32,000 nucleotides of DNA, taken from Methylophaga frappieri (GTDB lineage Bacteria > Pseudomonadota > Gammaproteobacteria > Nitrosococcales > Methylophagaceae). The DNA lies in contig NC_017856.1 of NCBI RefSeq assembly GCF_000260965.1, forward strand, positions 1,680,001 to 1,712,000, given 5' to 3'. The notes beneath the pieces were generated by a model. That model saw only the letters and a list, made by a program, of their open reading frames with translations, was not told the DNA's origin and did not search any database. The translations under genes were made by a program, and so were the position numbers. Below are positions 2,229-27,409 of the stretch, piece after piece. The first letter of the stretch is position 1. The number at the start of each line of letters is the position of its first letter.

Positions 2229-2304
2229 GGCTCGATAGCTCAGTTGGTAGAGCAAGGGATTGAAAATCCCTGTGTCCCTGGTTCGATTCCAGGTCGAGCC
2301 ACCA
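2229..2304 (+). tRNA. tRNA-Phe (anticodon GAA), CCA encoded
   Basis: 76 nt fold by hand into a cloverleaf. Acceptor GGCTCGA/TCGAGCC, D arm GCTC..GAGC, anticodon stem AGGGA/TCCCT with loop TTGAAAA, T arm CCTGG-TTCGATT-CCAGG, then discriminator A and CCA. Confidence 0.93.
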
Positions 2305-3900: not shown

Positions 3901-3962
3901 ATTTTTGGCTTGCACCAAAGCCGTTTTTTTAATAGCTTTTGAGATTCTTTTATTGCTAATTG

Positions 3963-4595
3963 ATGAATATGACTATTGCCATTTCAACCTGCCTGAACGC
4001 CATTACACTGACCTTGCAACAGCATGCTGATGAGGTTGCGGAACTGGATCAGGCCATTGGCGATGGTGATCACCTGGTTAATCTGCAACGTGGCTTGACT
4101 GCCCTCACGCAAGATTCGAGTTCGTTGGATAAGATGGCGTTACCTGAGGCGTTGAGCAAAATTGGTATGACACTGATGTCCACTATGGGTGGTGCGTCCG
4201 GCTCATTGCTTGGATCCATGTTTGTCACCATGGGCAAAACGGCTAAAAACACCCTAGCAGACTTTGCAGGCTTGGTAGACATTTATGCCGCGGGCGTCGC
4301 TGCAGTCAAGGCTCGCGGTAAGGCAGATATTGGCGAGAAAACCATGTTGGACACGCTGATTCCCGCGCTGGTGAGTTTGCAGGCCAGTGTGCGTTCAAAC
4401 GACTCGCTGATGCAAGCAATGCAGTCATTGCAGCAGGCCGCCGAGCAAGGCATGTTGTCAACAAAAGACATGTTGCCGACCAAAGGCCGTGCGTCCTTCC
4501 TGGGGGAACGAGCACGCGGCCATATTGATGCAGGTGCCAGAACCAGTCAGCTCATTCTCAGCGCCATTGCAGACGAAGTTATTCAAAACCAATAA
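3963..4595 (+). CDS. dhaL: Dihydroxyacetone kinase, ADP-binding subunit DhaL
   Basis: All-helical DAK2-type sequence with the nucleotide/Mg motif LDQAIGDGDH and C-terminal GRASFLGERARGHIDAGA. The start is uncertain (TTG 3960, ATG 3963, ATG 3969) and no clear SD is present. Confidence 0.8.
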   Translation: MNMTIAISTCLNAITLTLQQHADEVAELDQAIGDGDHLVNLQRGLTALTQDSSSLDKMALPEALSKIGMTLMSTMGGASGSLLGSMFVTMGKTAKNTLADFAGLVDIYAAGVAAVKARGKADIGEKTMLDTLIPALVSLQASVRSNDSLMQAMQSLQQAAEQGMLSTKDMLPTKGRASFLGERARGHIDAGARTSQLILSAIADEVIQNQ

Positions 4596-4598
4596 GGT

Positions 4599-5591
4599 TT
4601 AACAGCCCCACCGTAAAGCCGCTGTATGCACGGGAGCATCCCAGAGTGCAATGAGTTCTTCATCTAACAGGGTAACCGTGACAGAGCAGCCGATCATGTC
4701 CAGAGAGGTTGTGTAGTTCCCCACTAAACTACGATGAATTTCAATACCTTTTTGTTGCCAATATTTGGCAGCAATATCAAATACCAAATACAACTCCATC
4801 AATGGGGTGGCGCCAAGACCATTGATATGCAGCAATATTTTTTGTCCAGCCTGTGGCGATAAATCCCGATCAATCGTTTCGGTTAATTGCTGAACCAATG
4901 TTTCCGCTGAGGCCATCGGCACAATATCGCGGCCGCGCTCACCGTGAATACCTACACCCATTTCGACTTCATTATCAGCGATCGTAAAAGTTGGCTTACC
5001 CACTTCCGGAACGGTACAACTACTCAGCGCCAACCCCATTGAAGCAGTTTGACGACAGACTTTCTCGCCCAGTGCTTTACAGGCAGCGAGATCCCGACCT
5101 TGTTCAGCGGCTGCACCAACAATTTTTTCGACGATAAGTGTCCCGGCAACACCCCGTCTGCCCGTACTGTGATCTGCTGGCAACGAGACATCATCCGCTA
5201 CCAGCACGGTCGCATTTTCTGCTTCCAACATCTCGGCGGCAATTTCAAAGTTCATCACGTCACCAGCATAATTTTTGACAATGAATAGCACACCAGCACC
5301 GTTTTCAACGGATTCAGCCGCCGCCAGCATTTGATCGGGCGTTGGTGAGGTAAAGACCTGTCCCGGACAGGCCGCATCCAACATCCCCTGACCAACGAAA
5401 CCGGCATGCAGTGGTTCATGACCCGCACCACCACCTGAAACAAGCGCGACCTTAGGGTGATTCGCAATATGCTTTCGCCGAACAAATCTCGGCGACGTTT
5501 CTGCAATGACAATATCGGCATGGGCAATGGCAAAGCCCTGTAATGACTCTGTCAATAATGTGTCCGGTTGGTTCAATAGTTTTTTCATCAA
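4599..5591 (-). CDS. dhaK: Dihydroxyacetone kinase, DHA-binding subunit DhaK
   Basis: 330 aa. DAK1 hallmarks are present: VALVSGGGAGHEPLHAGFVGQGMLDAACPGQVFTSPTP and IVKNYAGDVMNF. It starts 8 nt after the upstream HAD gene. Confidence 0.88.
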   Translation of the reverse strand: MMKKLLNQPDTLLTESLQGFAIAHADIVIAETSPRFVRRKHIANHPKVALVSGGGAGHEPLHAGFVGQGMLDAACPGQVFTSPTPDQMLAAAESVENGAGVLFIVKNYAGDVMNFEIAAEMLEAENATVLVADDVSLPADHSTGRRGVAGTLIVEKIVGAAAEQGRDLAACKALGEKVCRQTASMGLALSSCTVPEVGKPTFTIADNEVEMGVGIHGERGRDIVPMASAETLVQQLTETIDRDLSPQAGQKILLHINGLGATPLMELYLVFDIAAKYWQQKGIEIHRSLVGNYTTSLDMIGCSVTVTLLDEELIALWDAPVHTAALRWGC

Positions 5592-5599
5592 TAGATTCC

Positions 5600-6442
5600 T
5601 TATTTCAGACTAGCTTCCAGCGCAGCAGTAATCGCAGGCAGGTCGGGTAAAATCCAGTCTGGCCCGTAGTCCAAGTCGTCTACTTCCGATGCTGTTGAAA
5701 CACCAGTCAATACCATCAGGCTCCGGATACCTGCATTAACAGCCCCTAATATGTCGGTGTTCAAACGATCGCCAATGGCAATGGTGTTGTGTTTCTCTGT
5801 TCCCAAAATTTCAAAAGCTTGTTGATATAAGATCGGTTCCGGTTTACCAATAACCCTTGGTGCTTTTCCAGTCACACTGGTTAACGCCGCCAAGACGCCA
5901 CCATTGCCCATCACCTCTCCCCGCTCTGTAGGCAAGCTAGAGTCAGCATTTGTCGCATAAAATAGGGCGCCATGATTCAGGTTAAGCGTTGCGGTGGCTA
6001 ATTTATCCCAAGTCAGTTTTCTATCAAGGCCAGAAACAACAACATCGGCCCAGTCAACCGACTCATCAGGGTGCGTGGGTTTTAAATCAATGAGGTCTGT
6101 TAACGAAAAACCCTGTTCTTCAAGGGGGTGCCGTAAGCCAGCCTCACCAATCACAAATACCCGTTTTTTGTCATCTGGCAGATTTTCCTTAAGGTAACGG
6201 GCTGTTGCCATACTCGAAGTTAAAACCTCATCCGCGGATACCTCAACTGACATACTGGCTAATTTGTCGATATATTGTGTTTGGGTAAGACTGGCGTTGT
6301 TAGTCGCCAACACGAACGGCAACTTTACCGAGCGCAATAAAGCAAAAAACTCCGATAGTCCGGGTAACGCGTTATTGCCGTGCCAGAGTACGCCATCCAT
6401 ATCGATGATCAGCCCGCCGATATTTTCAATTTTCGTCTGCAT
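5600..6442 (-). CDS. HAD-IIA family sugar-phosphate phosphatase (NagD-like)
   Basis: Motif I (IIDMDGVLW), motif II (LATNNAS) and motif IV (AIGDRLNTD) are present. I chose the ATG at 6442 by N-terminal length relative to NagD-type proteins. An in-frame ATG at 6475 would add 11 aa. Confidence 0.75.
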   Translation of the reverse strand: MQTKIENIGGLIIDMDGVLWHGNNALPGLSEFFALLRSVKLPFVLATNNASLTQTQYIDKLASMSVEVSADEVLTSSMATARYLKENLPDDKKRVFVIGEAGLRHPLEEQGFSLTDLIDLKPTHPDESVDWADVVVSGLDRKLTWDKLATATLNLNHGALFYATNADSSLPTERGEVMGNGGVLAALTSVTGKAPRVIGKPEPILYQQAFEILGTEKHNTIAIGDRLNTDILGAVNAGIRSLMVLTGVSTASEVDDLDYGPDWILPDLPAITAALEASLK

Positions 6443-6548
6443 GTGAGTTACGTTTGGTCTGAGATAAAAAATCATTTAAGCGTCGCACTTTGCTGTGACC
6501 CTGTCCAGCCCAATCCACCAGTTCACCGAGCCGCTTGATGGCTAAAAA

Positions 6549-6578
6549 TTGACAGCGTTTGAGCAACTGCTTTATAGT
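6549..6578 (+). promoter_or_regulatory. Sigma70 promoter for hps copy 1
   Basis: Perfect -35 TTGACA (6549..6554), 18-nt spacer, -10 TATAGT (6573..6578). It lies about 60 nt upstream of the hps1 ATG, which has SD AGGAG at 6625..6629. Confidence 0.6.
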
Positions 6579-6638
6579 CTTGTGGCGTAAATTCAACGTA
6601 AAACCATAAATTAAATCAAATTTTAGGAGCATGTCAGC

Positions 6639-7280
6639 ATGGCAAAAGCACTTATTCAAATGGCCCTTGATTCTCTGGATTTCGATCAAACTATCGCACT
6701 TGCTGAGCAAGTTTCGCCTTATGTCGACATCCTCGAAGTTGGTACACCGTGCATCAAATATAACGGTCTGGAAATCGTTACTGCACTGAAAGCCAAATTC
6801 CCGAACAACTTGATTCTGGTTGACTTGAAAACAATGGACGCGGGTGAATATGAAGCGACGCCTTTCTATGAAGCTGGCGCTGACATTTGCACCGTTTTAG
6901 GTGTTTCTGACAAAGCAACTATGGGCGGCGTTATCAAAGCAGCCAATGCAAATAATGCTGAAGCACAAATCGATTTGATCAGCGTTAAAGATAAAAAAGC
7001 CGTTGCCACTGAAGCAGCGAAAAACGGTGCGCAAATCATTGGTGTTCACACTGGTCTGGATGCACAAGCTGCTGGCCAAACCCCATTCGCTGACTTGCAA
7101 GCCATTGCTTCACTGAATCTGGGTGTGCGTATTTCTGTTGCTGGTGGTCTGAACAAAGACACTATCCAGAAAACTATCCAAGCTGGTGCTAACATTGTTG
7201 TTGTTGGTGCGGCGATCTACGGTGCGCCATCTCCAGCAGAATCTGCTAAAGAATTGCGTGCTCTGGTTGATGCTGCTTAA
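6639..7280 (+). CDS. hps: 3-hexulose-6-phosphate synthase, copy 1
   Basis: 213 aa of the OMP-decarboxylase-like HPS family: QMALDSLDFD..., DILEVGTPCIKYNG, LVDLKTMDAGEYEA, IGVHTGLDAQA, VAGGLN. It is a paralogue of the ORF at 9137..9772. Confidence 0.92.
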   Translation: MAKALIQMALDSLDFDQTIALAEQVSPYVDILEVGTPCIKYNGLEIVTALKAKFPNNLILVDLKTMDAGEYEATPFYEAGADICTVLGVSDKATMGGVIKAANANNAEAQIDLISVKDKKAVATEAAKNGAQIIGVHTGLDAQAAGQTPFADLQAIASLNLGVRISVAGGLNKDTIQKTIQAGANIVVVGAAIYGAPSPAESAKELRALVDAA

Positions 7281-7303
7281 GCGAGACCATTGAACGAAAC
7301 TAG

Positions 7304-7336
7304 AAAACGAGTGGCACACTGCCACTCGTTTTTTTT
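7304..7336 (+). terminator. Rho-independent terminator after hps1
   Basis: Perfect 10-bp stem acgagtggca / tgccactcgt, 3-nt loop, T8 run. Confidence 0.85.
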
Positions 7337-7402
7337 ATCAGATTCCTTACAGGCTGGTTGAACTTGTCAGGCACGCAGCCAAAACTGTCGGCTAGCTGAG
7401 AG

Positions 7403-7484
7403 TGGTCAAAGACAACTTTGCAGCGCTATAATTTTAATCGCGTTTATGTGTTGGCTTGCCACAAGAAACCTAAAATAGTAATTT
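7403..7484 (+). promoter_or_regulatory. Candidate sigma70 promoters for the repeat-protein ORF
   Basis: Two candidates. First: TGGTCA (7403..7408), 18-nt spacer, TATAAT (7427..7432). Second: TTGCCA (7456..7461), 17-nt spacer, TAATTT (7479..7484). Motif match only. Confidence 0.35.
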
Positions 7485-7555
7485 ACCCGTTGCGCCAACC
7501 TCACTAACCGTTGGGCAGATGGGGTTAGAATAATAAGGTAACAGGGGTATTTCTC

Positions 7556-7861
7556 ATGAGTGACAAAGGACTTTTGGCATCAATTTGCAGCTTCCTGAAA
7601 GGATTGTTTTCCGCCTCTAAGGACAGTGATTGTTGCAACGATAATGCGTCGAGCAAACCGGCAAATGATGGACTGACCAGTGTTGAGCGTTATATTCGTA
7701 ACCAAGCGCAGAATGGTCAGTCTTTGACCGGTGTTGAGCGTTATATTCGCAATCAACTCAGCAACAACCAACCACTGACTGGTGTAGAGAAATACATCCG
7801 TAACAGTGCTGGCACCAAACCACTGACTGGTGTAGAGCGCTATATCCGTAGCAAGTCTTAA
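7556..7861 (+). CDS. Small hypothetical protein with four tandem LTGVE(R/K)YIR repeats and a Cys-containing N-terminus
   Basis: 101-aa ORF with SD AGGGG 8 nt upstream and a strong terminator downstream. The repeat core is conserved at the amino-acid level while codons differ synonymously between units. I recognise no domain. Confidence 0.6.
   Translation: MSDKGLLASICSFLKGLFSASKDSDCCNDNASSKPANDGLTSVERYIRNQAQNGQSLTGVERYIRNQLSNNQPLTGVEKYIRNSAGTKPLTGVERYIRSKS
7673..7858 (+). repeat. In-frame tandem repeat, 4 units of 51/51/48/36 nt
   Basis: The units encode LTSVERYIRNQAQNGQS, LTGVERYIRNQLSNNQP, LTGVEKYIRNSAGTKP and LTGVERYIRSKS. At the DNA level units 1 and 2 are most alike, as are units 3 and 4. 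Confidence 0.85.
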
Positions 7862-7885
7862 AGCGCTACGCAAGCAAACAGCTAC

Positions 7886-7930
7886 ATTACGACGCAGCAA
7901 TGCTCGCATTGCTATGGCGTCGTAATTTTT
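7886..7930 (+). terminator. Compound rho-independent terminator after the repeat-protein ORF
   Basis: Outer stem attacgacgc / gcgtcgtaat encloses inner stem gcaatgc / gcattgc and is followed by T5. A further gccggc-attg-gccggc hairpin lies at 7931..7946. Confidence 0.8.
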
Positions 7931-8008
7931 GCCGGCATTGGCCGGCAATTTTAACTGGGCCGCCCAACCCGACAGACTTTTAAATATTCGTTTAAAAAAG
8001 GTACTCAA

Positions 8009-8992
8009 ATGGCGAACTTACTTGATCAATTGAAGCAAATGACCATTGTTGTTGCAGACACTGGTGATATTCAAGCCATCGAAAAATATACACCACGTGA
8101 TGCGACAACCAACCCATCACTCATTACCGCAGCCGCGCAAATGCCACAATATCAGGCTATCGTAGATGATACGTTGAAAGCAGCGCGTCAATCCCTGGGA
8201 GCAAGTGCGGATGCCAAAGAAGTCGCTACCCTGGCGTTTGATCGTCTGGCCGTTTCTTTTGGTTTGAAAATTCTGGAAATCATTCCTGGTCGTGTCTCAA
8301 CTGAAGTTGATGCGCGTCTGTCTTACGATACAGAAGCAACCATCGCCAAAGGGCGTGAAATCATTGCGCAATATGAAGCAGCGGGTGTATCTAAAGATCG
8401 TATCCTGATTAAAATCGCGTCAACCTGGGAAGGTATTCAGGCTGCTGCGGTGCTGGAAAAAGAAAACATTCACTGTAATTTGACATTGCTGTTCGGTCTG
8501 CACCAGGCAATTGCTTGCGCAGAAAACGGTATCACACTGATTTCACCATTCGTTGGCCGCATTCTTGACTGGTACAAAAAAGATACCGGTCGTGATTCAT
8601 ATGCTTCTCATGAAGATCCAGGTGTACTTTCTGTCACCGAAATCTATAGCTACTACAAAAAGTTTGGCTATAACACTGAAGTCATGGGCGCCAGCTTCCG
8701 TAATGTGGGTGAAATCACTGAACTGGCCGGTGTTGACTTGCTGACCATTTCGCCTGCTCTGTTAGATGAGTTGCAAAAAACAGAAGGCACGCTGGAACGT
8801 AAACTGTCTCCAGAGAAAGCAGCCAATGCCAACATCGATAAAATCAGTATCGATAAAGCCACTTTCGACAAAATGCATGATGAAAACCGCATGGCGGCAG
8901 AGAAATTGTCCGAAGGCATTGATGGTTTTGCTAAGGCGCTGGAAACCTTGGAAGAACTGCTGGCATCACGTCTGGCAGAGCTGGAAAGCTAA
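8009..8992 (+). CDS. tal: Transaldolase (TalB-type, class I)
   Basis: 327 aa. Motifs [41 protein letters not shown] and NLTLLF match classical transaldolase. Confidence 0.92.
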
Positions 8993-9011
8993 TCGAACAT
9001 CATTAGCACCC

Positions 9012-9040
9012 GTCCGGTCGGTTGAACTACCCGACCGGAC
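9012..9040 (+). other. Stable hairpin after tal without a proper T-tract (possible partial terminator or RNA-processing site)
   Basis: 10-bp perfect stem gtccggtcgg / ccgaccggac with a 9-nt loop. A second small hairpin gaacagc-acg-ctgttc lies at about 9054..9070. Neither has a U-run. Confidence 0.4.
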
Positions 9041-9136
9041 AACACAGTCTTTTGGAACAGCACGCTGTTCTAATTGCTGATAAGAAAAACCCGTTAACCA
9101 TAATGGGATCATTTTTTAACTTTAGGAGTAAACAAC

Positions 9137-9772
9137 ATGGCTGAAATTCAAATGGCTCTGGACTCACTGGATTTTGACGCAACAATGGCGCTGGCTGAAC
9201 AAGTCGCTCCTTACGTCGATATTCTGGAAATTGGTACCCCTTGCATCAAATACAACGGTCTGAAACTGGTTAAAGCACTGAAAGCTGCTCACCCAGACAA
9301 GAAAATCCTGGTTGACCTGAAAACAATGGATGCGGGCGAATACGAAGCCACTCCTTTCTTTGAAGCTGGTGGTGACATCACAACTGTTCTGGGCGCTTCT
9401 GATATGGCGACCATGAAAGGGGTTATCAAAGCGGCTAACGCAAACAACGGCGAAGCTCAAATCGACTTGATCGGTGTTGAAGATAAAGCTGCTGTTGCTA
9501 AAGATGCAGCAACTAACGGCGCGCACATCATCGGTGTTCACACTGGTCTGGACGCACAAGCTGCAGGTCAAACACCATTCGAAGATCTGAAAACCATCAC
9601 TGGTCTGGGTCTGAATGTTAAAGTTTCTGTTGCTGGTGGTATCAACAAAGACACTATCCAAAGCTGTGTACAAGCAGGTGCGGCTATCGTTGTTGTTGGT
9701 GCAGCTATCTACGGCGCGCCTTCTCCAGCAGAATCTGCTAAAGAACTGCGTGCACTGGTTGACGCAGCCTAA
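9137..9772 (+). CDS. hps: 3-hexulose-6-phosphate synthase, copy 2
   Basis: 211 aa with SD AGGAG. It has the same motif set as copy 1. My manual alignment gives 40 differences over 208 aligned residues. Confidence 0.92.
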   Translation: MAEIQMALDSLDFDATMALAEQVAPYVDILEIGTPCIKYNGLKLVKALKAAHPDKKILVDLKTMDAGEYEATPFFEAGGDITTVLGASDMATMKGVIKAANANNGEAQIDLIGVEDKAAVAKDAATNGAHIIGVHTGLDAQAAGQTPFEDLKTITGLGLNVKVSVAGGINKDTIQSCVQAGAAIVVVGAAIYGAPSPAESAKELRALVDAA

Positions 9773-9796
9773 GCATAAAAATAAGGAAACTAAATA

Positions 9797-10330
9797 ATGC
9801 ATCGTGATCTACTGTTAAACAAAATCACTGACATTCTTGGCGCGACGGAAGAATCTTATGAAGCCAAACTGGTTTCTATGTGTGATGATGCCAAGCGTAT
9901 CTTCATTACAGGTGCTGGTCGTTCCAAGCTAGTAGGTAATTTCCTGGGTATGAGATTGATGCATAGTGGTTATGAAACCTATGTTCAGGGTGAAGTTGCT
10001 ACCCCAAGTATCCGTAGTGGTGATCTTCTGATCGTCATTTCCGGGTCAGGGGAAACCACTCAACTGGTTTCATTCGCCAATAAGGCCAAGTCAGAAGGCG
10101 CAAAAGTGATTCTGATTTGCTCTAAATCAAAATCCACAATTGGCGATATTGCAGACCAAACGGTTCAAATCGGTAACGATGGCAGCTTTGCAACAACTAA
10201 AGGCCTGCCCATGGGCACCATGTTTGAACTTTCCACATTGATTTTTCTCGAAGCCACAATTTCTTATCTTATCCATGAGAAAGGCATCGCAGAAGAAGAT
10301 ATGCGGTACCGGCATGCCAATATGGAATAA
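9797..10330 (+). CDS. phi: 6-phospho-3-hexuloisomerase (SIS domain)
   Basis: 177 aa with SIS motifs IFITGAGRSKLV and LLIVISGSGET. It starts 24 nt after hps2 and has SD AAGGAA. Confidence 0.9.
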   Translation: MHRDLLLNKITDILGATEESYEAKLVSMCDDAKRIFITGAGRSKLVGNFLGMRLMHSGYETYVQGEVATPSIRSGDLLIVISGSGETTQLVSFANKAKSEGAKVILICSKSKSTIGDIADQTVQIGNDGSFATTKGLPMGTMFELSTLIFLEATISYLIHEKGIAEEDMRYRHANME

Positions 10331-17632: not shown

Positions 17633-18343
17633 ATGTTTCGTAAAAAGACTCACCAACCCCCACAACTTTTCTTTGAAAACCAGCCGGTTTCGATTCGTCG
17701 TGACCGACGTCGAAAATCGGTAGCAATCAAAGTCACTGATAATAGGATCAGCTTACATTTACCCTGGCGTTGCCCATTATCCTTAGGAGAGAAGTTTCTT
17801 GAGCAAAAACAAGAGTGGCTGAAAAACTCGCTAAAAAAACAGCTCAATCAGCCGGTTCGTCGCTATAACAACAACTCACAGCAACCCTATTTAGGCCAGT
17901 CGTTACAATTACGCTTCAAGCCACAATTAACCTCATCCTTTATATTGAACGACGAACAAATACAGTTAAAACTGCCGACAGATTCAGATCAAAGGATCGC
18001 CAAAAATAAATTAAGCGAAGCTTATCAAACATTAGCCACAGATTATCTGCCACAACGCGGTTGGCAGATTGCCAAAAAAACCGGCCTCATGCCAGCCAGG
18101 TTTCGGGTACGTTATTACAAGTCACGATGGGGGAGTTGTCACGCTGGCGGCGAAATTCGGCTGAACTGGCAACTGGTTCAGGCACCGATTTCGGTTATCG
18201 ATTATGTCTTGATCCATGAGCTTTGCCATTTGCAAGAGATGAATCACAGCCCGGCATTCTGGCGATTAGTCGGGGAGCAGATGCCTGATTTTAAAATTCA
18301 GCGGCAATGGCTGAAGCAGCAGGGCCATACGTTACTGTTTTAA
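17633..18343 (+). CDS. DUF45 / M48-like zinc metallopeptidase (YgjP family)
   Basis: 236 aa with the C-terminal motif RWGSC...INLNW-like followed by HELCHLQEMNHSPAFW (HExxH). Confidence 0.75.
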   Translation: MFRKKTHQPPQLFFENQPVSIRRDRRRKSVAIKVTDNRISLHLPWRCPLSLGEKFLEQKQEWLKNSLKKQLNQPVRRYNNNSQQPYLGQSLQLRFKPQLTSSFILNDEQIQLKLPTDSDQRIAKNKLSEAYQTLATDYLPQRGWQIAKKTGLMPARFRVRYYKSRWGSCHAGGEIRLNWQLVQAPISVIDYVLIHELCHLQEMNHSPAFWRLVGEQMPDFKIQRQWLKQQGHTLLF

Positions 18344-18391
18344 CGGCCGGATTTACTTGTAATTTTCCCAAGATGAATTAACATATTGCAG

Positions 18392-18466
18392 TTGAATAAG
18401 GAACGCTGCGACAGACACCGATTCTGCTAGGCTTATTCAATGATGTAGCATAAAACGGCGTTCATT
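18392..18466 (+). promoter_or_regulatory. Putative SAH riboswitch aptamer (SAH_riboswitch class) in the metK leader
   Basis: The sequence is TTGAATAAGGAACGCTGCGAC..TAGGCTTATTCAA..AAAACGGCGTTCAT. From memory, the conserved SAH-element blocks are AGGAGCGCUGCGAC / CAGGCUCGG / AACGGCGCUCAC. Helix 18392-18400 pairs with 18432-18440 (9 bp). Pseudoknot helix GAACGC (18401-06) pairs with GCGTTC (18458-63). Where this sequence departs from the recalled consensus, the changes are compensatory (G to A paired with C to T). Confidence 0.6.
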
Positions 18467-18562
18467 ATTAACAGGTCACTGGTAGTAATGGGCATCGTCT
18501 CTGAACTTTTCTCACCATTCTGCTATCTGTACCTACCCGCCCCCTAACTAAGGATGCAGTCT

Positions 18563-19726
18563 ATGAGTCGTGCTTATCTCTTTACCTCTGAATCTGTTTC
18601 AGAAGGTCATCCAGATAAAGTCGCCGATCAAATTTCTGATGCCATACTTGATGCCATCATTACCCAGGACCCCAAAGCGCGTGTGGCTTGTGAAACGTTG
18701 ATAAAAACGGGGGTTGCCATTATTGCCGGTGAAATCACCACCGAAGCCTGGGTCGATATTGAAGACATCGTTCGCAAAACGATTAAAGACATTGGCTACA
18801 CTAGTTCTGATGTGGGTTTTGACGGTGAAACCTGTGGCGTCATGTCTGTCATTGGCAAACAATCGCCCGATATAAACATGGGCGTTGACCGCGGTAATGA
18901 AGACGAGCAAGGTGCTGGGGATCAGGGCCTGATGTTTGGCTATGCCAGTAATGAAACCGATGTATTAATGCCTGCGCCCATTACTTACGCGCATCGTCTC
19001 GTCAAACAACAATCGCAAGTTCGTCGCTCAGGGGAATTACCTTGGCTACGTCCAGATGCGAAAAGCCAGATTACTTTTGTTTATGAGAACGGTAAACCCG
19101 TTGGTGTTGATGCCGTCGTATTATCCACTCAACACAACCCAGACATCAGCCAGAAAGATCTGCACGAAGCGGTGATGGAACATATCATTAAACCCGTCTT
19201 ACCATCTGAATGGTTAACTTCGCAAACCGCATATCATATCAATCCGACTGGTCAGTTTATTATTGGCGGTCCGGTTGGCGACTGCGGTCTGACTGGAAGA
19301 AAAATTATTGTCGATACTTACGGTGGTATGGCACGTCATGGTGGTGGCGCCTTTTCAGGCAAAGATCCTTCCAAAGTTGATCGCAGTGCGGCGTACGCGG
19401 GTCGCTATGTCGCTAAAAATATCGTTGCCGCCGGCTTGGCTGAGCGTTGTGAAATTCAGATTTCTTATGCTATAGGCGTCGCTGAACCGACTTCGATCAG
19501 TATCGATACCTTTGGCACCGGCAAGATTGACGAAGCCAAATTAGTCCAGCTGGTACGTGAACATTTTGATTTGCGCCCGGTCGGCCTTATCAAGATGCTG
19601 GATCTGGTTAGACCGATTTATCAGGCCACAGCTGCTTACGGTCATTTTGGCCGTGAAGACGTGGCGTTCCCTTGGGAACAAACCAACCTTGCCCCACTGT
19701 TGCGCAATGCGGCTGGCCTCAAATAA
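18563..19726 (+). CDS. metK: S-adenosylmethionine synthase
   Basis: Collinear with E. coli MetK ([29 protein letters not shown]). I chose the ATG at 18563, which has AAGGA 8 nt upstream. The track ORF starts 3 codons earlier. Confidence 0.95.
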
Positions 19727-19747: not shown

Positions 19748-21064
19748 ATGACCTCTCATGCTGCTGTCGAAAATCTGACTCCCGATTATAAAGTTGCTGA
19801 TATTAACTTGGCGAAATGGGGACATCAGGAAATTAAAATTGCGGAAAGTGAAATGCCTGGCCTGATGGCATTACGCGACGAATATCAAGGTCAAGCACCA
19901 TTACAAGGTGCCCGCATTGCAGGCTGTCTGCATATGACCATTCAAACTGCTGTACTCATTGAAACATTAGTCGAACTTGGCGCAGAGGTGCGTTGGTCAT
20001 CCTGTAATATTTTTTCGACTCAGGATCATGCTGCAGCGGCCATCGCCGATCAGGGAATTCCCGTATTTGCCTGGAAAGGTGAAACCGAAGAAGAAGCTGT
20101 TTGGTGTATTCGTCAAACGATTCTAGGCCCAGATGGCTGGCGGCCAAACATGATTCTCGACGATGGCGGGGATTTAACCCAACTGATGCATAGCGATTAC
20201 CCCGAATTACTGGAACAAGTGCGCGGACTATCAGAAGAAACCACCACCGGTGTGCATCGCCTTTATGAAATGATGCGCGACGGCAGTCTTAAAGTCCCGG
20301 CTATCAATGTGAACGACTCGGTTACCAAATCGAAATTTGATAATTTATATGGATGTCGTGAGTCCTTGCTGGATGGTATCAAGCGTGCAACCGACGTCAT
20401 GGTTGCCGGCAAAATCTGCGTCGTCTTAGGCTATGGTGACGTCGGTAAAGGTTGCGCTCAAGCTTTTCGCGGTATGGGAGCAACCGTTCTGGTAACTGAA
20501 ATTGATCCTATCTGCGCATTACAGGCCGCGATGGAAGGCTATCGCATCGTGACTCTTGAAGACGTTGCGGATAAAGCCGATATCTTTGTAACGGCAACTG
20601 GCAACATCAATGTGATCAATCATGAGCACATGACGGCTATGAAAAATGAAGCCATTGTCTGCAATATTGGTCATTTTGATAATGAAATCGATGTCGCTTC
20701 CCTACGCCAATACGAATGGGAAAATATCAAGCCTCAAGTTGATCACGTTATCTTCCCTGATGGCAAACGCATTATCTTATTGGCTGAGGGTCGTCTGGTT
20801 AATTTGGGCTGCGCTACGGGTCACCCCAGCTTTGTCATGTCTGCCTCATTCACTAATCAAGTGATGGCGCAAATCGAACTTTGGCAAAATCACCAGAACT
20901 ATGAAAATAAAGTCTATGTATTGCCAAAACGCCTTGATGAAAAAGTGGCAAAATTACATTTAACTCGTATTGGCGCCAAACTAACAGAAATGACCGAAGC
21001 GCAATCACAATACCTAGGATTACCGAAAACCGGTCCTTACAAACCAGAACACTATCGCTATTAA
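19748..21064 (+). CDS. ahcY: Adenosylhomocysteinase
   Basis: Motifs [45 protein letters not shown] site GYGDVGKG and C-terminal YRY are present. I chose the ATG at 19748 (SD AGGAA). It lies 21 nt after metK. Confidence 0.95.
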
Positions 21065-21073
21065 CCCTTAGCA

Positions 21074-21094
21074 GGGGAGCTGAACTTGCTCCCC
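21074..21094 (+). other. Hairpin between ahcY and metF (possible attenuator or processing site)
   Basis: ggggagc-tgaactt-gctcccc. A T5 run begins only 10 nt downstream, so this is not a classical terminator. Confidence 0.3.
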
Positions 21095-21120
21095 ACCAGC
21101 CTGTTTTTGCGAGGAAGAAA

Positions 21121-21975
21121 ATGGCTAAATCCCCTATTATCAGTTGCGAGTTTTTCCCTCCTAAAACAGAGAAAGGCGTCAACACATTTTTGCAGGTGGC
21201 AACAGAACTTGCCGAACTCCAACCGGCTTTTTATTCGGTCACGTTTGGCGCCGGTGGCTCGACACAACACAATACGCTTGATGCCGTGATTGCGATTCAG
21301 CAACGTGCCGCTACAACCGGCATAGATGCCGCGCCGCATCTCTCTTGCGTCGGTTCATCTCGCCAAGGGATTCGCCAGATTTTACAAACATTCATCGATA
21401 ACGACATTTCCAGACTGGTTGCCTTACGTGGTGACCTGCCGTCCGGGATGCGTGATCCGGGAGAGTTTCGCTATGCAAATGAGTTAGTAGAATTCATCCG
21501 TGCCGAAACGGGAGATCATTTTACGATTGAAGTTGCCGCTTATCCTGAGGTACACCCACAAGCGCCGAATGCCAACATTGATTTTGACAACTTCGTACGC
21601 AAAGTCGATGCAGGTGCCGATAGTGCCATTACCCAATATTTTTACAATATTGACGCGTATTTATATTTTGTCGATCGCTGTGAGCAGGCGGAACTGGATA
21701 TTCCCATCATTCCGGGCATCATGCCGATCAATAATTATTCCCAGTTAGCTCGCTTCTCCGCCGGCTGCGGAGCTGAAATTCCGCGCTGGTTGAGTAAGCG
21801 GCTTGAAGCATTTCATGACGACACGGCTTCATTGCAAGCTTTTACAACCGATTTCCTGACTGATTTTACCCAGCAATTGCTGGATCTGGATGTGCCAGGA
21901 CTACATTTTTACACAATGAACAAAACCCAGCCGGTATTAACGGTTTGTGAACGTCTGGGACTGCTTACGCCTTAA
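21121..21975 (+). CDS. metF: 5,10-methylenetetrahydrofolate reductase
   Basis: 284 aa with motifs SCEFFPPKT, SVTFGAGGST, LVALRGD and HFYTMN. SD GAGGAAG. Confidence 0.92.
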   Translation: MAKSPIISCEFFPPKTEKGVNTFLQVATELAELQPAFYSVTFGAGGSTQHNTLDAVIAIQQRAATTGIDAAPHLSCVGSSRQGIRQILQTFIDNDISRLVALRGDLPSGMRDPGEFRYANELVEFIRAETGDHFTIEVAAYPEVHPQAPNANIDFDNFVRKVDAGADSAITQYFYNIDAYLYFVDRCEQAELDIPIIPGIMPINNYSQLARFSAGCGAEIPRWLSKRLEAFHDDTASLQAFTTDFLTDFTQQLLDLDVPGLHFYTMNKTQPVLTVCERLGLLTP

Positions 21976-22108: not shown

Positions 22109-23569
22109 GTGAAACCATCATTACAGCTACGTGTAGGCCAAAGCCTGTCGATGACGCCGCAGTTACAACAGGCCATTCGTCTGCTACAACTTTCTTCGTT
22201 AGAGCTTCAAGTAGAAATTCAGGAAGTTCTCGAAACGAATCCCCTGCTTGAAGTTGAAGAAGACTTTGATTTCGACGGTGAATCTGATGCGCCTGAAAAG
22301 CGCGATGAAGACCACGATAGTCGAGAAATCAGTGAACTCGAAAATCGTGATATTCCAGAAGAGTTACCTGTTGATAGTCAGTGGGATGATGTTTACGACC
22401 AGACAACCTATACAGCCTCAACCTCTGTAAACACCGCAGAATCAGATTTTGAGCGGGATGGTCACGATGAGAGTGGTGATACCCTGCAACAACATCTTCT
22501 GTGGCAGATGCGCCTGACGCCATTTACTGAAATTGAATATGCCATTGCGACGGCAATAATCGACTCCATTGAAGACGATGGCTACCTCAAATGCACGCTT
22601 GAAGACATTCAACTGACGCTGGGCGATGATTTTGAAGAAATCGAATTAGACGAAATCGAAACTGTCTTACATCGCATTCAACATTTTGATCCGGTCGGCG
22701 TCGGTGCCAGAGATCTGCGGGAATGCTTATTGATCCAACTTCGTCTGTTCGATGCAGATGCCGTCCAGCATCTGGATGTATTGACGGCGTTGATTGATCA
22801 ACATCTGGACACCTTGGCAAAACGTGATTATGTCGCAATCAAACGAGCCCTCAAAGTCAGTGATGACGAACTGACTGATCTGGTGCGTCAGATACAACTT
22901 TTGAACCCGCGGCCTGGCACATTAATCCAGCGGGACAATACCGAATATGTGGTACCAGATATTTATGCACGTAAATATCAAGGCCAGTGGCGTTTGTCTT
23001 TGAATCCTGACAATGCGCCAAAATTACAAATTGCCGACCATTATGCTCAATTAATTAATCGGGCAGATAACAGTGCCGAAAATACTTATCTGAAAAATAA
23101 CCTGCAGGAAGCGCGCTGGTTCCTGAAAAGTCTGCAAAGTCGCAATGAAACGCTACTCAAAGTAACGCAAGCCATCGTCGACAGACAACGCGATTTTCTG
23201 GATCACGGCGATGAAGCCATGAAGCCACTCGTGTTGGCAGACATTGCTGAAACGGTTGAAATGCATGAATCTACGATCTCGCGAGTCACAACCCGCAAAT
23301 ATCTACATACGCCCCGCGGTATTTTTGAGCTGAAATACTTTTTCTCCAGTCATGTCGGCACCGAAAGCGGCGGCGAATGTTCAGCAACGGCAATTCGAGC
23401 TATTATTAAAAAACTGGTCGCAGCCGAGAACCCAAGAAAACCGCTGAGCGACAGTAAAATTGCTGATATTCTCAAAGAACAGGGGATCAATGTTGCAAGA
23501 CGTACCATTGCTAAATACCGGGAAACCTTGTTTATCCCTCCGTCAAACGAGCGTAAGCGACTGGTGTAA
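22109..23569 (+). CDS. rpoN: RNA polymerase sigma-54 factor
   Basis: N-terminal region I (LSMTPQLQQAIRLLQLSSLELQ), an acidic region II, and a C-terminal HTH plus RpoN box (ARRTIAKYRE). GTG start. Confidence 0.95.
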   Translation: MKPSLQLRVGQSLSMTPQLQQAIRLLQLSSLELQVEIQEVLETNPLLEVEEDFDFDGESDAPEKRDEDHDSREISELENRDIPEELPVDSQWDDVYDQTTYTASTSVNTAESDFERDGHDESGDTLQQHLLWQMRLTPFTEIEYAIATAIIDSIEDDGYLKCTLEDIQLTLGDDFEEIELDEIETVLHRIQHFDPVGVGARDLRECLLIQLRLFDADAVQHLDVLTALIDQHLDTLAKRDYVAIKRALKVSDDELTDLVRQIQLLNPRPGTLIQRDNTEYVVPDIYARKYQGQWRLSLNPDNAPKLQIADHYAQLINRADNSAENTYLKNNLQEARWFLKSLQSRNETLLKVTQAIVDRQRDFLDHGDEAMKPLVLADIAETVEMHESTISRVTTRKYLHTPRGIFELKYFFSSHVGTESGGECSATAIRAIIKKLVAAENPRKPLSDSKIADILKEQGINVARRTIAKYRETLFIPPSNERKRLV

Positions 23570-23603
23570 ACCAGTTTTCATCCACCAACAGGAGTGAAGC
23601 ATT

Positions 23604-23930
23604 ATGCAATTAAACTTAAGCGGACAACATTTAGACATCACCGATAGTCTTCGTGATCACGTCAACAAAAAATTTGAAAAACTGACCCGTCATTTTGACC
23701 ATATGACCAACGTTCATGTGGTTTTGTCCGTCGAAAAAGAGCGACAAAAAGCCGAGGCGACGGTCCATGTCAGTGGCGCCGATCTGTTCGCTTCTGATGA
23801 GCAGGAAAACATGTACAGCGCAATTGAAAATCTGGTTGCCAAACTGGATCGCCAGATTATTAAACACAAAGATAAAATCACCAATCACCATCAAGCGGAT
23901 GGTGCCATGAAAAAACATAATGCGAGTTAA
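23604..23930 (+). CDS. hpf: Ribosome hibernation promoting factor (short HPF/YhbH type)
   Basis: 108 aa beginning MQLNLSGQHLDITDSLRDHVNKKFEKL. SD AGGAG. It occupies the conserved position after rpoN. Confidence 0.9.
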   Translation: MQLNLSGQHLDITDSLRDHVNKKFEKLTRHFDHMTNVHVVLSVEKERQKAEATVHVSGADLFASDEQENMYSAIENLVAKLDRQIIKHKDKITNHHQADGAMKKHNAS

Positions 23931-23940
23931 GGGCTGACTC

Positions 23941-24402
23941 ATGCTGATCGCTGCGCTGTTAGTCAATGCCGATAATATTAGTTATCAGGATGAAGCCACC
24001 AGTAAAAAAAGAGTACTGGAAAACCTCAGTCACTTGCTGGCGGCTAACAGCGAAGCGCTGTCTGCCGATAAAGTCTTTCAGGTACTGCTTGAACGGGAAC
24101 GTTTGGGCAGTACCGGACTCGGCAAAGGTATTGCGATCCCCCATGCCCGCGTTCCAGGTTTAACCCATACCATGGCAGCCATGCTCACCTTAAGTGAACC
24201 GGTAGATTTTGAATCTGCTGATGGACAGCCAGTTGATATCGCTTTTGGTCTGCTGGTACCAGAAGATGATTCAGAAAATCATCTACAGCATTTATCACGA
24301 TTGGTGAGTATATTTCGCGATGCCGATTGCTGCGGAAAAATTCGCCATGCAGGCAGTGCTGATGCGATATTTGAGTATTTATTGTCATTAGACGAAGATT
24401 AG
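23941..24402 (+). CDS. ptsN: PTS-Ntr EIIA (PtsN)
   Basis: 153 aa with an EIIA-Fru/Ntr fold signature, GSTGLGKGIAIPHAR, containing the phosphorylatable His. Confidence 0.9.
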   Translation: MLIAALLVNADNISYQDEATSKKRVLENLSHLLAANSEALSADKVFQVLLERERLGSTGLGKGIAIPHARVPGLTHTMAAMLTLSEPVDFESADGQPVDIAFGLLVPEDDSENHLQHLSRLVSIFRDADCCGKIRHAGSADAIFEYLLSLDED

Positions 24403-24406
24403 TCTC

Positions 24407-24889
24407 ATGAGCGCAAACATTACGCGCTATCAACATGGCGTAATGGTTGTCTGGCAACAGACTGGGTTGCTCATTACCGGCCAGCCAGGCGTTGGCAAAA
24501 GCAGTTTGGCGCTCGCCCTGATTGAACTTGGCGGACAATTAGTTGCTGACGATTGTATTGATATCGTGTCCGATAACGATTGGTTAACGGCACGTTGCCC
24601 ACCGAAAATTATCGGCCTGTTACATCATCGTGAACTCGGCTTACTGGATATTCGAGCTATGTTTGGCAGTGATGCGTTTTGTCCAGCTGCCAAGATTGAT
24701 GCTGTAATTTCATTATCATTGACACCGACAGCGTTGCTTGACGAGTCAGCAACTGTCGAAATGCTGGCAGGGAAAGCGCTACCAAAATTATCGCTAACTG
24801 TTAGCAATCCTCTCCCATTACCCTCAAGGGTTGCTTTATGGTTGAAGTCACGATCCAACCCAACGCCTGAAATCGCAGGCTCGGTTTAG
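24407..24889 (+). CDS. hprK: Short HPr kinase/phosphorylase homologue (C-terminal catalytic domain only)
   Basis: 160 aa. [40 protein letters not shown] aligns with B. subtilis HprK [51 protein letters not shown] aligns with LGIINVMTLFG. There is no room for an N-terminal domain, because ptsN ends 4 nt upstream. Confidence 0.8.
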   Translation: [160 protein letters not shown]

Positions 24890-24987
24890 TAATACAGCAA
24901 ACAAAAACAACACTGAAATTTGCGAAATACCCTGATATACATTACATTCAGGCCAATTACCCCGCTTTAGCACAGGTCCCCGCACTA

Positions 24988-25392
24988 ATGACGGTAGGCG
25001 TTTTAATCGTATCGCATAACCATATCGGTACGGAACTTATTAATACGGCAAGGCAAATGCTTTCATGTTGTCCGCTGCCAACCAAAGTCATCTCTATTGA
25101 AGTCAAAGACAATCCTGAGGCGATTCGTAAACAGCTAGATCAGGAGTTACTTGGACTAGATCAGGGACATGGTATTCTCATTTTGACAGATATGTTTGGC
25201 TCTACGCCAAGCAATATTGCGTGTGCTGTTTCAGATCGGAATGATATCCGCATTGTTTCCGGCTTGAATCTTCCCATGTTAATTCGCGTGCTCAATTACC
25301 CGGCACTGTCACTTGATGAGCTTGAAATAAAAGCCATCAGTGGCGGTCAGGAAGGCATTGTGCGTTGCCATCATTCGGGTTATTTATCATGA
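24988..25392 (+). CDS. PTS EIIA component, mannose/fructose family (EIIA-Man)
   Basis: 134 aa. N-terminal VGVLIVSHNHIG contains the active-site His. Motifs LTDMFGSTPSN and VSGLNLPML are present. Confidence 0.85.
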   Translation: MTVGVLIVSHNHIGTELINTARQMLSCCPLPTKVISIEVKDNPEAIRKQLDQELLGLDQGHGILILTDMFGSTPSNIACAVSDRNDIRIVSGLNLPMLIRVLNYPALSLDELEIKAISGGQEGIVRCHHSGYLS

Positions 25393-25658
25393 CTGAGCAA
25401 ACGTTTACCATCATTAACAAGCTTGGTTTGCATGCGCGCGCTGCCGCTAAGTTCGTCACCAAAGCGTCCGAGTTTAGTGCTGATATTCGGGTCAGACGAG
25501 ACAATCGGGAAGTCAACGGCAAAAGTATTATGGGTGTCATGATGCTGGCGGCGGCCAAAGGGACGCAAATTACGGTTGTTGCCGAAGGGGATGATGAAGA
25601 ACAGGCACTGCAAGACATTGGCATCTTGATTAACGATTATTTTGGAGAAGGCCAATGA
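25389..25658 (+). CDS. ptsH: Phosphocarrier protein HPr (His15 and Ser46 motifs both present)
   Basis: 89 aa with GLHARAA (His15) and NGKSIMGVMML (Ser46 region, as in HprK-regulated HPr). The ATG at 25389 overlaps the EIIA-Man stop (ATGA). The track ORF starts 8 codons upstream. Confidence 0.88.
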   Translation: MTEQTFTIINKLGLHARAAAKFVTKASEFSADIRVRRDNREVNGKSIMGVMMLAAAKGTQITVVAEGDDEEQALQDIGILINDYFGEGQ

Positions 25659-27409
25659 CGCTGGAGCTTCAGGGTATTGGTGTCTCTCGTGGCATCGCCA
25701 TCGGGCGTGCACATATTCTGTTTCATAATCAGCCAGATGTCCGAGAATATCTGATTCCTGCTTTTGCAATACAACAGGAAGTTGACCGATTATTAGATGC
25801 CCTGAGTCAAGCAAAACAGCAACTCAAATCTATTCGCAACCATATTCCTGCCAATGCGCCTTCGGACATCACGTCGTTTATCGATACGCATATTTTGATG
25901 CTCAGTGATTCCTCACTGAATAAGGTTCCTGTAGAAATGATTCGTGAGCGTCGTTGCAACGCAGAGTGGGCACTTCAATTACAGCGTGATGCCCTCATTA
26001 ATGTGTTTAACGAAATGGATGATCCTTACCTGCGTACCCGGCGTGATGATATTGATCATGTTATCAATCGTGTGCACCGGATATTGGCCGATCAGGAAGT
26101 GGCCGATCATGAGATTCCAGATGGACGACTCAAAGGCCATATCATTATCGCCGAAGATTTAACACCAGCAGATACGGTTCTTATGCAGCATCAGGGCATT
26201 GCTGCTTTTGTCACAGAACACGGTGGCGCCACCTCGCATACGACCATTTTGGCCAGAAGTCTTGGTATCCCCGCGATTATTGGTGTCGAGTCAGTACGAC
26301 GTTATGTTCAGGATAATGAACCGCTGATTGTCGATGGTGAGGCCGGCATTATGATTGCCGGGGCAGATGAAACCACGACCAATGAATTCCAGCGTCGATT
26401 GCGCGCTTTTGATGAGCATATTTCCTCGCTCAGCCGCTATAAATCTCAACCAACAAAAACCCGGGATGGCAAAGCCATTACTTTACTGGCTAACGCCGAA
26501 TTGCCAGAGGATATCAGTACCATTTCTGCTGCTGGCGCCCAAGGCATTGGCCTGTATCGTACTGAGTTTCTCTATATGAACCGGCTCTCACCGCCAGAAG
26601 AAGAAGAACAGTTGGCAGCCTATCGCGATGTTGTGGAGGGGATGAATGGTCAACCTGTCACTATTCGAACCTTCGATCTTGGTGCCGACAAAACGGTTGA
26701 TGGCGGACGGCAACTGTCACAAAACATTGTCACCAATCCTGCTTTGGGGTTACGCGCCATACGACTGTGTCTGACGCAACCGGCAATGTTTAGGACACAG
26801 CTACGCGCCATTTTGCGGGCTTCTGCCTTTGGCAAAATCAAAATCATGTTCCCGATGATTTCAACGATGAATGAATTATTTCAAGCAAGAAATCTGTTGG
26901 AACAATGTAAAGCAGAGCTGGATCGGGAAGGTCTGGAGTATGACCGACATATTGAAATTGGCGCGATGATTGAAATTCCAGCCAGTGCAGTTTGCGCGGA
27001 GATGTTTGCCCGCCATGTCGACTTTTTATCAATTGGTACCAACGATTTGATTCAGTATACGCTGGCCATTGACCGCATTGATGACCACGTTAACTATCTT
27101 TATGATCCGCTCCATCCCGCCGTATTGAAATTGATTCACATGACCTTGGAAGCTGGCAGAAAACATCAAATACCGGTTTCCATGTGCGGTGAAATGGCAG
27201 GTGATGCCCGCTATACGCGATTACTGCTCGCCATGGGTCTGGAAAACTTCAGTATGCACCCCAATGCATTGCTTGAGGTCAAGCGGATTATCAACGAAAC
27301 CGATTTAGCTCAGTTACCCGCAAACACACTGCAAATCATGGCTGTTTCTGATGCCATAGAAGCGGACATGTTGATTGAACAAATCAACGAGCCAGATCAT
27401 CAAGCCTAG
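25655..27409 (+). CDS. ptsI: Phosphoenolpyruvate-protein phosphotransferase (Enzyme I, no GAF domain)
   Basis: 584 aa with phospho-His motif GGATSHTTILARSLGIPA, and also GLYRTEFLY and SIGTNDLIQY. Its ATG overlaps the ptsH stop. Confidence 0.93.
   Translation: MTLELQGIGVSRGIAIGRAHILFHNQPDVREYLIPAFAIQQEVDRLLDALSQAKQQLKSIRNHIPANAPSDITSFIDTHILMLSDSSLNKVPVEMIRERRCNAEWALQLQRDALINVFNEMDDPYLRTRRDDIDHVINRVHRILADQEVADHEIPDGRLKGHIIIAEDLTPADTVLMQHQGIAAFVTEHGGATSHTTILARSLGIPAIIGVESVRRYVQDNEPLIVDGEAGIMIAGADETTTNEFQRRLRAFDEHISSLSRYKSQPTKTRDGKAITLLANAELPEDISTISAAGAQGIGLYRTEFLYMNRLSPPEEEEQLAAYRDVVEGMNGQPVTIRTFDLGADKTVDGGRQLSQNIVTNPALGLRAIRLCLTQPAMFRTQLRAILRASAFGKIKIMFPMISTMNELFQARNLLEQCKAELDREGLEYDRHIEIGAMIEIPASAVCAEMFARHVDFLSIGTNDLIQYTLAIDRIDDHVNYLYDPLHPAVLKLIHMTLEAGRKHQIPVSMCGEMAGDARYTRLLLAMGLENFSMHPNALLEVKRIINETDLAQLPANTLQIMAVSDAIEADMLIEQINEPDHQA

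Follow-up and report, generated by a model that had tools for sequence, protein, structure and literature searches.

A stretch of 32,000 nucleotides from Methylophaga frappieri (contig NC_017856.1, positions 1,680,001 to 1,712,000; its whole length is called the window here) raises the question of whether a riboswitch for S-adenosylhomocysteine (SAH) can stand in front of metK, the gene for S-adenosylmethionine (SAM) synthetase, and of how such an element would act on the genes behind it. In the 2008 description by Wang et al., the canonical SAH riboswitch is reportedly found directly upstream of ahcY, metH or metF. An initial annotation of the window had pointed to an SAH-riboswitch-like pseudoknot at 18392-18466, ahead of metK, ahcY and metF. 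As set out below, the element belongs by its sequence and conserved pairing to a known family, its position ahead of metK recurs in related bacteria, and the leader appears to carry a conserved expression platform.

The SAH aptamer in the metK leader

The element and the genes that follow it are:

18392..18470, plus strand: SAH riboswitch aptamer (RF01057), a full-length Rfam match
18563..19726, plus strand: metK, methionine adenosyltransferase (SAM synthetase); TIGR01034, 631 bits (cut-off 309)
19748..21064, plus strand: ahcY, adenosylhomocysteinase; TIGR00936, 660 bits
21121..21975, plus strand: metF, methylenetetrahydrofolate reductase; TIGR00676, 316 bits (cut-off 294)

Across the window, Rfam reports just two matches, RF01057 and a tRNA. 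The match at 18392-18470 covers model positions 1-78 of 78 and scores 40.3 bits, above the gathering score of 37, so that the element passes the check with this model that had been proposed in the initial annotation. Searched with all 4227 families, the 32-kb window gives this hit an E-value of 2.7e-4; when the search is confined to the leader, the value is 2.7e-6. When the leader (18300-18620) was compared with Rfam at E<=5, no family other than RF01057 was matched, and this includes the SAM-class and SAM/SAH models.

All the pairings proposed initially for the helices P1 and P2 and for the pseudoknot are present, and the consensus blocks given there agree with those of Rfam. P1 is AU-rich and pairs TTGAATAAG (18392-18400) with CTTATTCAA (18432-18440), while P2 pairs CAGA (18412-15) with TCTG (18423-26). 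The pseudoknot helix P4 is formed by GAACGC (18401-06) and GCGTTC (18458-63), in which each pair of the consensus GAGCGC/GCGCUC is kept as a pair. At the junctions stand the blocks UGCGA (18407-11) and CUAGG (18427-31). The variable linker at 18441-57 contains in the window only a 3-bp ATG/CAT stem (18444-18452).

For a comparative analysis, 23 aptamers located before metK were aligned with 24 canonical ones, and as a control the pairing was recounted after sliding the partners. Over these 47 aptamers, P1, P2 and the pseudoknot are together 94% paired, compared to 29-42% in the slid controls, and 12 of the 19 pairs are changed on both sides. P1 has nine pairs, of which seven are changed on both sides (89.6% paired); all four pairs of P2 are so changed (94.8% paired); and the six pairs of P4 are 100% paired. 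The agreement with the structure is far beyond chance, and the covariation in homologous leaders that the initial annotation had looked to is present. Its claim that the deviations from the consensus are compensatory also holds: the changed P4 pair, 18403 with 18461 in the window, is A-U in all 23 aptamers located before metK, compared to G-C (23) or G-U (1) in the 24 canonical aptamers.

Every column that is invariant over the 47 aptamers is kept in the window. These columns include the UGC after P4, the AGGCU before the 3' strand of P1, and AC.GCG. In the crystal structure PDB 3NPQ, the contacts to SAH are made by junction residues, namely G15 in J4/2, A29, G30 and G31 in J2/1, and G47 in J1/4 (PMC5049679). 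As we map the crystal numbering, these residues would fall within the invariant junction motifs. All the defining traits of the family that sequence analysis can check are present. Judged by its sequence, the element is a genuine SAH-class riboswitch of the known family RF01057, and from the family membership and the intact junction nucleotides the aptamer would be expected to bind SAH. The A-U swap in P4 gives no reason to expect another ligand, because the SAH contacts are junction residues and lie outside P4.

Occurrence ahead of metK in related bacteria

Eighty genome loci around relatives of MetK were fetched, and Rfam was run on each. The SAH element is present in 26 of them. In 24 of the 26 it lies after metK and just before ahcY, at a distance of 3-98 nucleotides (nt) from ahcY (usually about 10-40 nt, median about 24 nt, with one outlier of 265 nt). 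In the other two, L001 and L035, it lies ahead of metK, and metK, ahcY and metF follow it as a tight group; the window has the same layout, with the element about 95-100 nt upstream of the metK start. L001 is a Piscirickettsiaceae metagenome-assembled genome (MAG) with the same synteny as the window (dusA / ygjP-like / metK / ahcY / metF), and L035 is a Methylococcaceae MAG.

A metagenome scan using the pseudoknot variant of the window as query (GGAACGC...ACGGCGTTCA) returned 30 loci, of which 25 have enough downstream sequence to be informative. In every one of these, metK is found 100-180 nt downstream of the element, and in the loci with longer contigs it is followed by ahcY and then metF. 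The loci with the element before metK form two lineages, one with the dusA synteny (MetK 81-88% identity) and one that is L035-like (MetK 70-76% identity). An independent check, not selected by the search pattern, is provided by three cultured Methylophaga lineages (M. thalassica-type, M. thiooxydans-type and M. lonarensis MPL), which share the element, the synteny and the pseudoknot variant and score 42-43 bits, above the Rfam threshold. Twenty metagenomic members score 40.5-54.8 bits against RF01057, and the copy in the window is the lowest scorer of the group. On these sequences, the layout with the element before metK is a conserved subclass of the SAH riboswitch. Since all tested members pass the Rfam gathering score, the subclass is within reach of routine annotation.

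In some members (L082, L085, L088 and L098) the linker holds an extra hairpin of 5-6 bp, an optional and variable insertion; in L088 it reads GUCGAU-UUUAC-AUCGAU.

About 20 of the loci have a tight metK-ahcY arrangement and no Rfam hit. A purpose-built covariance model found no SAH element in these at E<=1, and hidden sub-threshold elements before metK were ruled out on this basis. These operons must be regulated in some other way, since no SAH element was found there. Four loci from Methylococcaceae/Methylobacter MAGs (L006, L012, L014 and L015) have a tRNA gene about 70 nt upstream of metK, at about 2855-2932. Three of them have a tight metK-ahcY(-metF) cluster, while in L014 no ahcY was found; no SAH riboswitch was found in any of the four. 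In a Neisseria MAG (L065, 2708-2818) a SAM-I/IV riboswitch (45.4 bits) lies directly upstream of metK, and in a Rhodanobacter locus (L037, 114-333) a cobalamin riboswitch lies about 2.7 kb upstream of it. The neighbourhood of metK would thus appear to hold different RNA sensors in different lineages.

Other RNA elements before metK are also known. The SAM/SAH riboswitch of Rhodobacterales (RF01727) resembles the present element in standing before metK and in having SAH-like ligands (PMC2864571). However, it has an unrelated fold, a small H-type pseudoknot with the Shine-Dalgarno (SD) sequence inside it, and is thought to be a SAM OFF switch, and it has no match in the leader of the window (E<=5). 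The SAM-Chlorobi motif (Weinberg et al., 2010, PMC2864571) is, as here, a single leader RNA before metK-ahcY operons, in Chlorobi; it differs in sequence and structure, its ligand was not demonstrated in that study, and it likewise has no match in the window leader (E<=5).

The expression platform and its possible output

The further features of the leader are:

18357..18384, plus strand: putative sigma-70 promoter, identified by eye (-35 TTGTAA 18357-62, 16-nt spacer, -10 TAACAT 18379-84)
18455..18498, plus strand: alternative hairpin H_alt (X:Y), from the minimum free energy (MFE) fold of the leader and from conservation
18474..18493, plus strand: segment Y, GGUCACUGGUAGUAAUGGGC, which acts as switching arm and takes in the apical loop's 3' half
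18499..18548, plus strand: C-rich, G-poor spacer, 21 C and 4 G in 50 nt
18514..18534, plus strand: segment W, ACCAUUCUGCUAUCUGUACCU, partner of Y, within the spacer
18550..18565, plus strand: metK ribosome-binding region, with SD AAGGA 18550-54 and start ATG 18563-65

The putative promoter is under the cut-off of the promoter scan. Its elements (-35 cTTGnn; -10 TAAAAT, TTAATAT or TAACAT) are conserved in all related leaders, ending 6-8 nt before P1. Because this conserved promoter abuts P1, transcription would be expected to start about 1-2 nt before P1, placing the aptamer at the 5' end of the mRNA.

The initial annotation gave the gap between aptamer and SD as roughly 95 nt, without an expression platform. 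In fact the gap is about 85 nt, and a conserved platform made of two competing helices was found, the hairpin X:Y and the helix Y:W. Arm X (18455-18471) consists of the 3' strand of P4, GCGUUC, together with AUUAUUA; the Y side of the hairpin reaches 18498, and there is an apical mini-stem CAG/CUG. H_alt is present in the MFE structure of the full leader, and RNAalifold gives it, for both lineages, as the only conserved structure downstream of the aptamer. Over 20 distinct leader sequences it is 92.5% paired (31-58% in slid controls), and its central 10 bp are 100% paired. Since X is invariant, this core varies only between U-A and U-G. H_alt and the ligand-bound pseudoknot share strand X and are therefore mutually exclusive.

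The duplex of Y with W in the window comprises 16 bp in four blocks and has a predicted energy of -16.0 kcal/mol. Compared to dinucleotide shuffles of the spacer, Y:W has a mean z of -1.85, with z<-1 in 18 of the 20 leaders and p<=0.05 in 10. In 19 of the 20 leaders, 19-31 nt separate the end of W from the AUG. The pairing of Y:W amounts to 78.6% in the Methylophaga-type lineage, where slid controls give 29-61%, and to 75.2% in the L035-type lineage, where they give 30-49%. The cores are G-R-U-A-G-U in Y and A-C-U-A-U-C in W in the former, and G-A-A-A-A-U and A-U-U-U-U-C in the latter. There are thus two compensatory changes between the lineages, one of which breaks an X:Y pair yet keeps Y:W. 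The signal is seen only when the whole arm is used, including the 3' half of the loop. When only the lower portion of the freed arm is paired with the spacer, the duplex is no better than dinucleotide shuffles (mean z about -0.5), and this candidate was rejected.

In partition function calculations, the probability of Y:W is 0.00 for the free leader, and it reaches 0.35 when P4 is locked and 0.48 when all of X is; the corresponding values for the window are 0.01, 0.08 and 0.78. In this model, the formation of Y:W depends on the state of the aptamer. The two conserved complementarities, X:Y and Y:W, and their mutual exclusivity were, like the family membership, computed directly, and as far as conservation can tell the metK leader contains a conserved expression platform.

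The SAH class is described as ligand-activated, and P4 is its strand-exchanging helix, with a 3' strand that is shared with the hairpin of the OFF state (PMC3905868, PMC5049679). By analogy with the family, the present element would also be an ON switch. We hypothesise that transcription starts 1-2 nt before P1, and that SAH is bound by the aptamer formed from P1, P2 and the pseudoknot. Without SAH, X would pair with Y as H_alt, and the pyrimidine-rich W would be left free, either to pair with the SD region or to stay single-stranded and C-rich; expression would be low. With SAH, X would be kept in the pseudoknot, and the freed Y would pair with W. The Y:W helix would then free the SD, or hide the C-rich stretch from Rho, or both, so that metK, ahcY and metF go up. 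In this way a rise in SAH would turn on its own hydrolysis and, along with it, the regeneration of methyl groups and the synthesis of SAM. We assign a probability of roughly 0.6 to this reading, namely that an SAH riboswitch heads the metK-ahcY-metF transcript and acts through the exchange from X:Y to Y:W, being ON with SAH.

As regards the output step, W overlaps a stretch, CUGCUAUCU (18520-28), that is predicted to pair with the SD region: in the MFE structure of the window it pairs with GGAUGCAG (18552-59), a target that spans the 3' half of the SD. The folding suggests a four-segment relay, in which X:Y and W:SD would form without SAH (OFF), and P4 and Y:W would form with SAH, leaving the SD free (ON).

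Several observations weigh against the exchange and this output. W:SD is 70.8% paired, compared to 26-54% in slid controls, and is weaker than Y:W, while spacer:SD duplexes are no better than shuffles (mean z -0.54). The mean unpaired probability of the ribosome-binding site (RBS) rises only from 0.36 to 0.43, going up in 11 and down in 4 of 20 leaders, and in the window RBS exposure rises from 0.39 to 0.57 only when X is locked over its full length. Changes in H_alt are all one-sided, its 5' strand being invariant. The compensation in Y:W between the lineages was read off the pair tables of two separate alignments, and within each lineage Y:W is mostly conserved with no co-variation, and shuffle controls are not exceeded. 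Finally, a hairpin between ahcY and metF, described further below, could uncouple metF from metK and ahcY.

A simple thermodynamic relay to the SD, with the aptamer locked up to GCGUUC, was rejected: it gives no consistent unmasking of the RBS, and the effect in a finer folding test is still small.

The alternative that survives best, which we regard as possible but distinctly less probable, keeps the same aptamer and the same exchange of X:Y for Y:W, with Rho-dependent termination as the output, instead of or besides SD masking. Without SAH the single-stranded spacer would load Rho, and with SAH the freed, G-rich Y would cover it. The near-constant RBS exposure in the folding model speaks for this version, as does the composition of the spacer: its C-minus-G excess, +17, ranks in the top 0.05% when all 50-nt windows of the 32 kb, on either strand, are compared. 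The terminator scan finds no intrinsic terminator in the leader, and W, the partner of Y, sits inside the C-rich stretch. The C/G ratio of the spacer is 5.25 in the window and exceeds 1 in each of the 17 leaders analysed, but in the second lineage the bias is far less marked (1.1-2.0). Moreover, the stretch is short at about 50 nt, and when 78 nt are considered it is only in the top 1.3%; G-poor leaders are in any case common for other reasons. The composition is thus suggestive of, and compatible with, a Rho loading site. SD release and Rho termination are mutually compatible, and both give ON logic.

Canonical members with long leaders (L009, L027 and L058) also have, by eye, a hairpin overlapping P4 followed by C-rich sequence, which is a further point for Rho. 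Together with L050 and L076, these canonical loci have a hairpin on the 3' strand of the pseudoknot, for example GCGCUCGCUGAAC...GUUCAGGCGAGCG, without a U-tract, and 50-100 nt of C-rich sequence between this hairpin and the SD. Platforms of the relay or Rho kind may be common across the SAH family: the type is not unique to the subclass, because P4-overlapping hairpins and C-rich leaders occur in some canonical members.

A more far-reaching view, which we consider doubtful, is that the subclass is functionally distinct. The pseudoknot, weakened by the A-U pair, would reset the threshold and be combined with a so far undescribed relay of three helices (X:Y, Y:W, and W with the SD or with a Rho utilisation (rut) site), possibly coupled to Rho, putting SAM synthesis under SAH feed-forward in methylotrophs. 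In its extreme form, the subclass would read the balance of SAM and SAH instead of SAH by itself.

It is unlikely that H_alt is itself a weak, non-canonical intrinsic terminator whose formation is prevented by SAH, with Y:W incidental. The model for this would be the metH switch of Dechloromonas aromatica (Ceres et al., 2013, PMC3905868), also a P4-controlled ON switch, in which the OFF hairpin takes the pseudoknot's 3' strand as its 5' arm, just as H_alt takes X. The topology is identical, H_alt is the most conserved structure, and UUGUGUC, UUUCAUC or similar sequence follows the arm in many leaders. However, the OFF hairpin in D. aromatica is an intrinsic terminator with a U-tract, whereas the leaders here all lack a proper U-tract (no more than 4 U in 8 bases; AUCGUCUC in the window), and the released arm has a conserved partner downstream, W, next to the SD. 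A terminator would also leave unexplained the conserved W block, which co-varies between lineages, and the following 85-180 nt of leader. A canonical intrinsic terminator was rejected outright: none was found in the leader by scan, and none of the homologues has a U-tract after H_alt.

Least probable is a subclass of changed ligand or polarity that senses SAM or the SAM/SAH ratio and represses metK: SAM-responsive elements do normally sit before metK (PMC2864571), and the subclass has its own P4 change and lower Rfam scores (40-55 bits, compared to 39-68 for canonical members), but that change is a compensated pair inside a helix, the contacts in 3NPQ are made by junction residues (PMC5049679) and the invariant columns are intact, the SAM-class families do not match at E<=5, repression of ahcY at high SAH is physiologically senseless, and repression by SAM leaves the retention of an SAH-type pocket unexplained.

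The probable operon, its neighbours and significance

The gene order given in the initial annotation is borne out by the profile matches and the intergenic sequence: 21 nt separate the metK stop from the ahcY ATG at 19748, and 56 nt separate the ahcY stop from the metF ATG at 21121. All three genes are on the same strand, and their order is conserved in related loci; co-transcription would be expected. For metK, ATG 18563 is the best placed start. The open reading frame (ORF) list also has an in-frame ATG at 18554; read from 18563, MetK aligns with TIGR01034 from profile position 1, and this ATG is homologous to ATGAGT/ATGAGC starts in all related leaders. For ahcY the ORF list gives TTG 19739, and ATG 19748, with an SD of AGGA, is likelier.

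The ahcY-metF intergenic region (21065-21120) contains a GC-rich 7-bp hairpin, GGGGAGC-TGAACTT-GCTCCCC, at 21074-21094, with TGTTTTTG about 10 nt past it. The region has a predicted folding energy of -20.9 kcal/mol (z -1.8). The hairpin could be a partial terminator, an attenuator, or a processing or stability element.

Upstream of the metK leader are dusA and the gene for a YgjP-like metallopeptidase. On the 3' side of metF come rpoN, hpf and ptsN, the beginning of a conserved nitrogen phosphotransferase system cluster at 22109-27409 (rpoN - hpf - ptsN - HPr-kinase-like - EIIA(Man) - ptsI). The HPr-kinase-like product has 160 residues, the size of a C-terminal fragment. In the related loci L091 and L104, rpoN is likewise found after metF, about 1.8 kb downstream.

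The window also contains genes of the ribulose monophosphate (RuMP) cycle, namely two copies of hxlA, hxlB and transaldolase. They lie in a cluster for methylotrophy and one-carbon assimilation at 3960-10330, which begins with dhaL (3960-4595, plus strand), dhaK (4599-5591, minus strand) and a HAD-IIA phosphatase gene (5600-6475, minus strand). The gene for hexulose-6-phosphate synthase, hxlA, occurs at 6639-7280 and again at 9137-9772, the two copies flanking the transaldolase gene (8009-8992), a notable arrangement, and hxlB is at 9797-10330. The closest relatives of MetK are all from Methylophaga species (84-88% identity). Because of these RuMP-cycle genes and nearest MetK proteins, the host is, on gene content, a Methylophaga-type marine methylotroph. 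Look-ups of the exact MetK protein of the window, read from either start, and of its MetF returned no record. The tRNA in the window is a tRNA-Phe(GAA) gene at 2229-2304 (plus strand), overlapped by a 113-residue ORF on the opposite strand (2224-2565) that is probably spurious.

Compared to the canonical SAH riboswitch, the element has the same fold (P1, P2, P4 and the conserved junctions), and ahcY and metF are downstream here too. It differs in its position before metK, the A-U pair in P4, the AU-rich P1 and the long relay platform. It is thus not a new kind of element, and it implies no new ligand or fold. In relation to published descriptions, what differs is that metK is the first regulated gene, that the A-U pair in P4 is fixed, and that the relay platform has no terminator; this would add modestly to what is known of the class.

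Leyn et al. (2014, PMC4239095) reconstructed the SAH-riboswitch regulons in about 200 proteobacterial genomes and stated that metK is outside their control, in agreement with the initial annotation, which knew of no such element before metK. The extension of the regulon to metK is therefore new, and a literature search found no report of an SAH riboswitch controlling metK, or of one in Methylophaga. The same regulatory logic and regulon are found with SahR, an SAH-responsive repressor of Proteobacteria, for which a build-up of SAH raises metK and ahcY together with metF or metH (Leyn et al., 2014, PMC4239095). SahR, however, is a protein acting on operators, and not an RNA.

The practical impact is modest, in that the aptamer is already found by standard annotation. 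What the locus offers is a defined and testable platform for an ON riboswitch that works without a terminator, having three complementary segments with natural compensatory variants, and cultured hosts exist in M. lonarensis, M. thiooxydans and M. thalassica. In Methylophaga-type bacteria the riboswitch probably controls the whole metK-ahcY-metF operon. In Methylophaga and in a second marine gammaproteobacterial lineage, a single RNA sensor would then probably govern the whole methyl cycle, that is SAM synthesis, SAH hydrolysis and the supply of methyl-tetrahydrofolate, following a logic that elsewhere is that of SahR.

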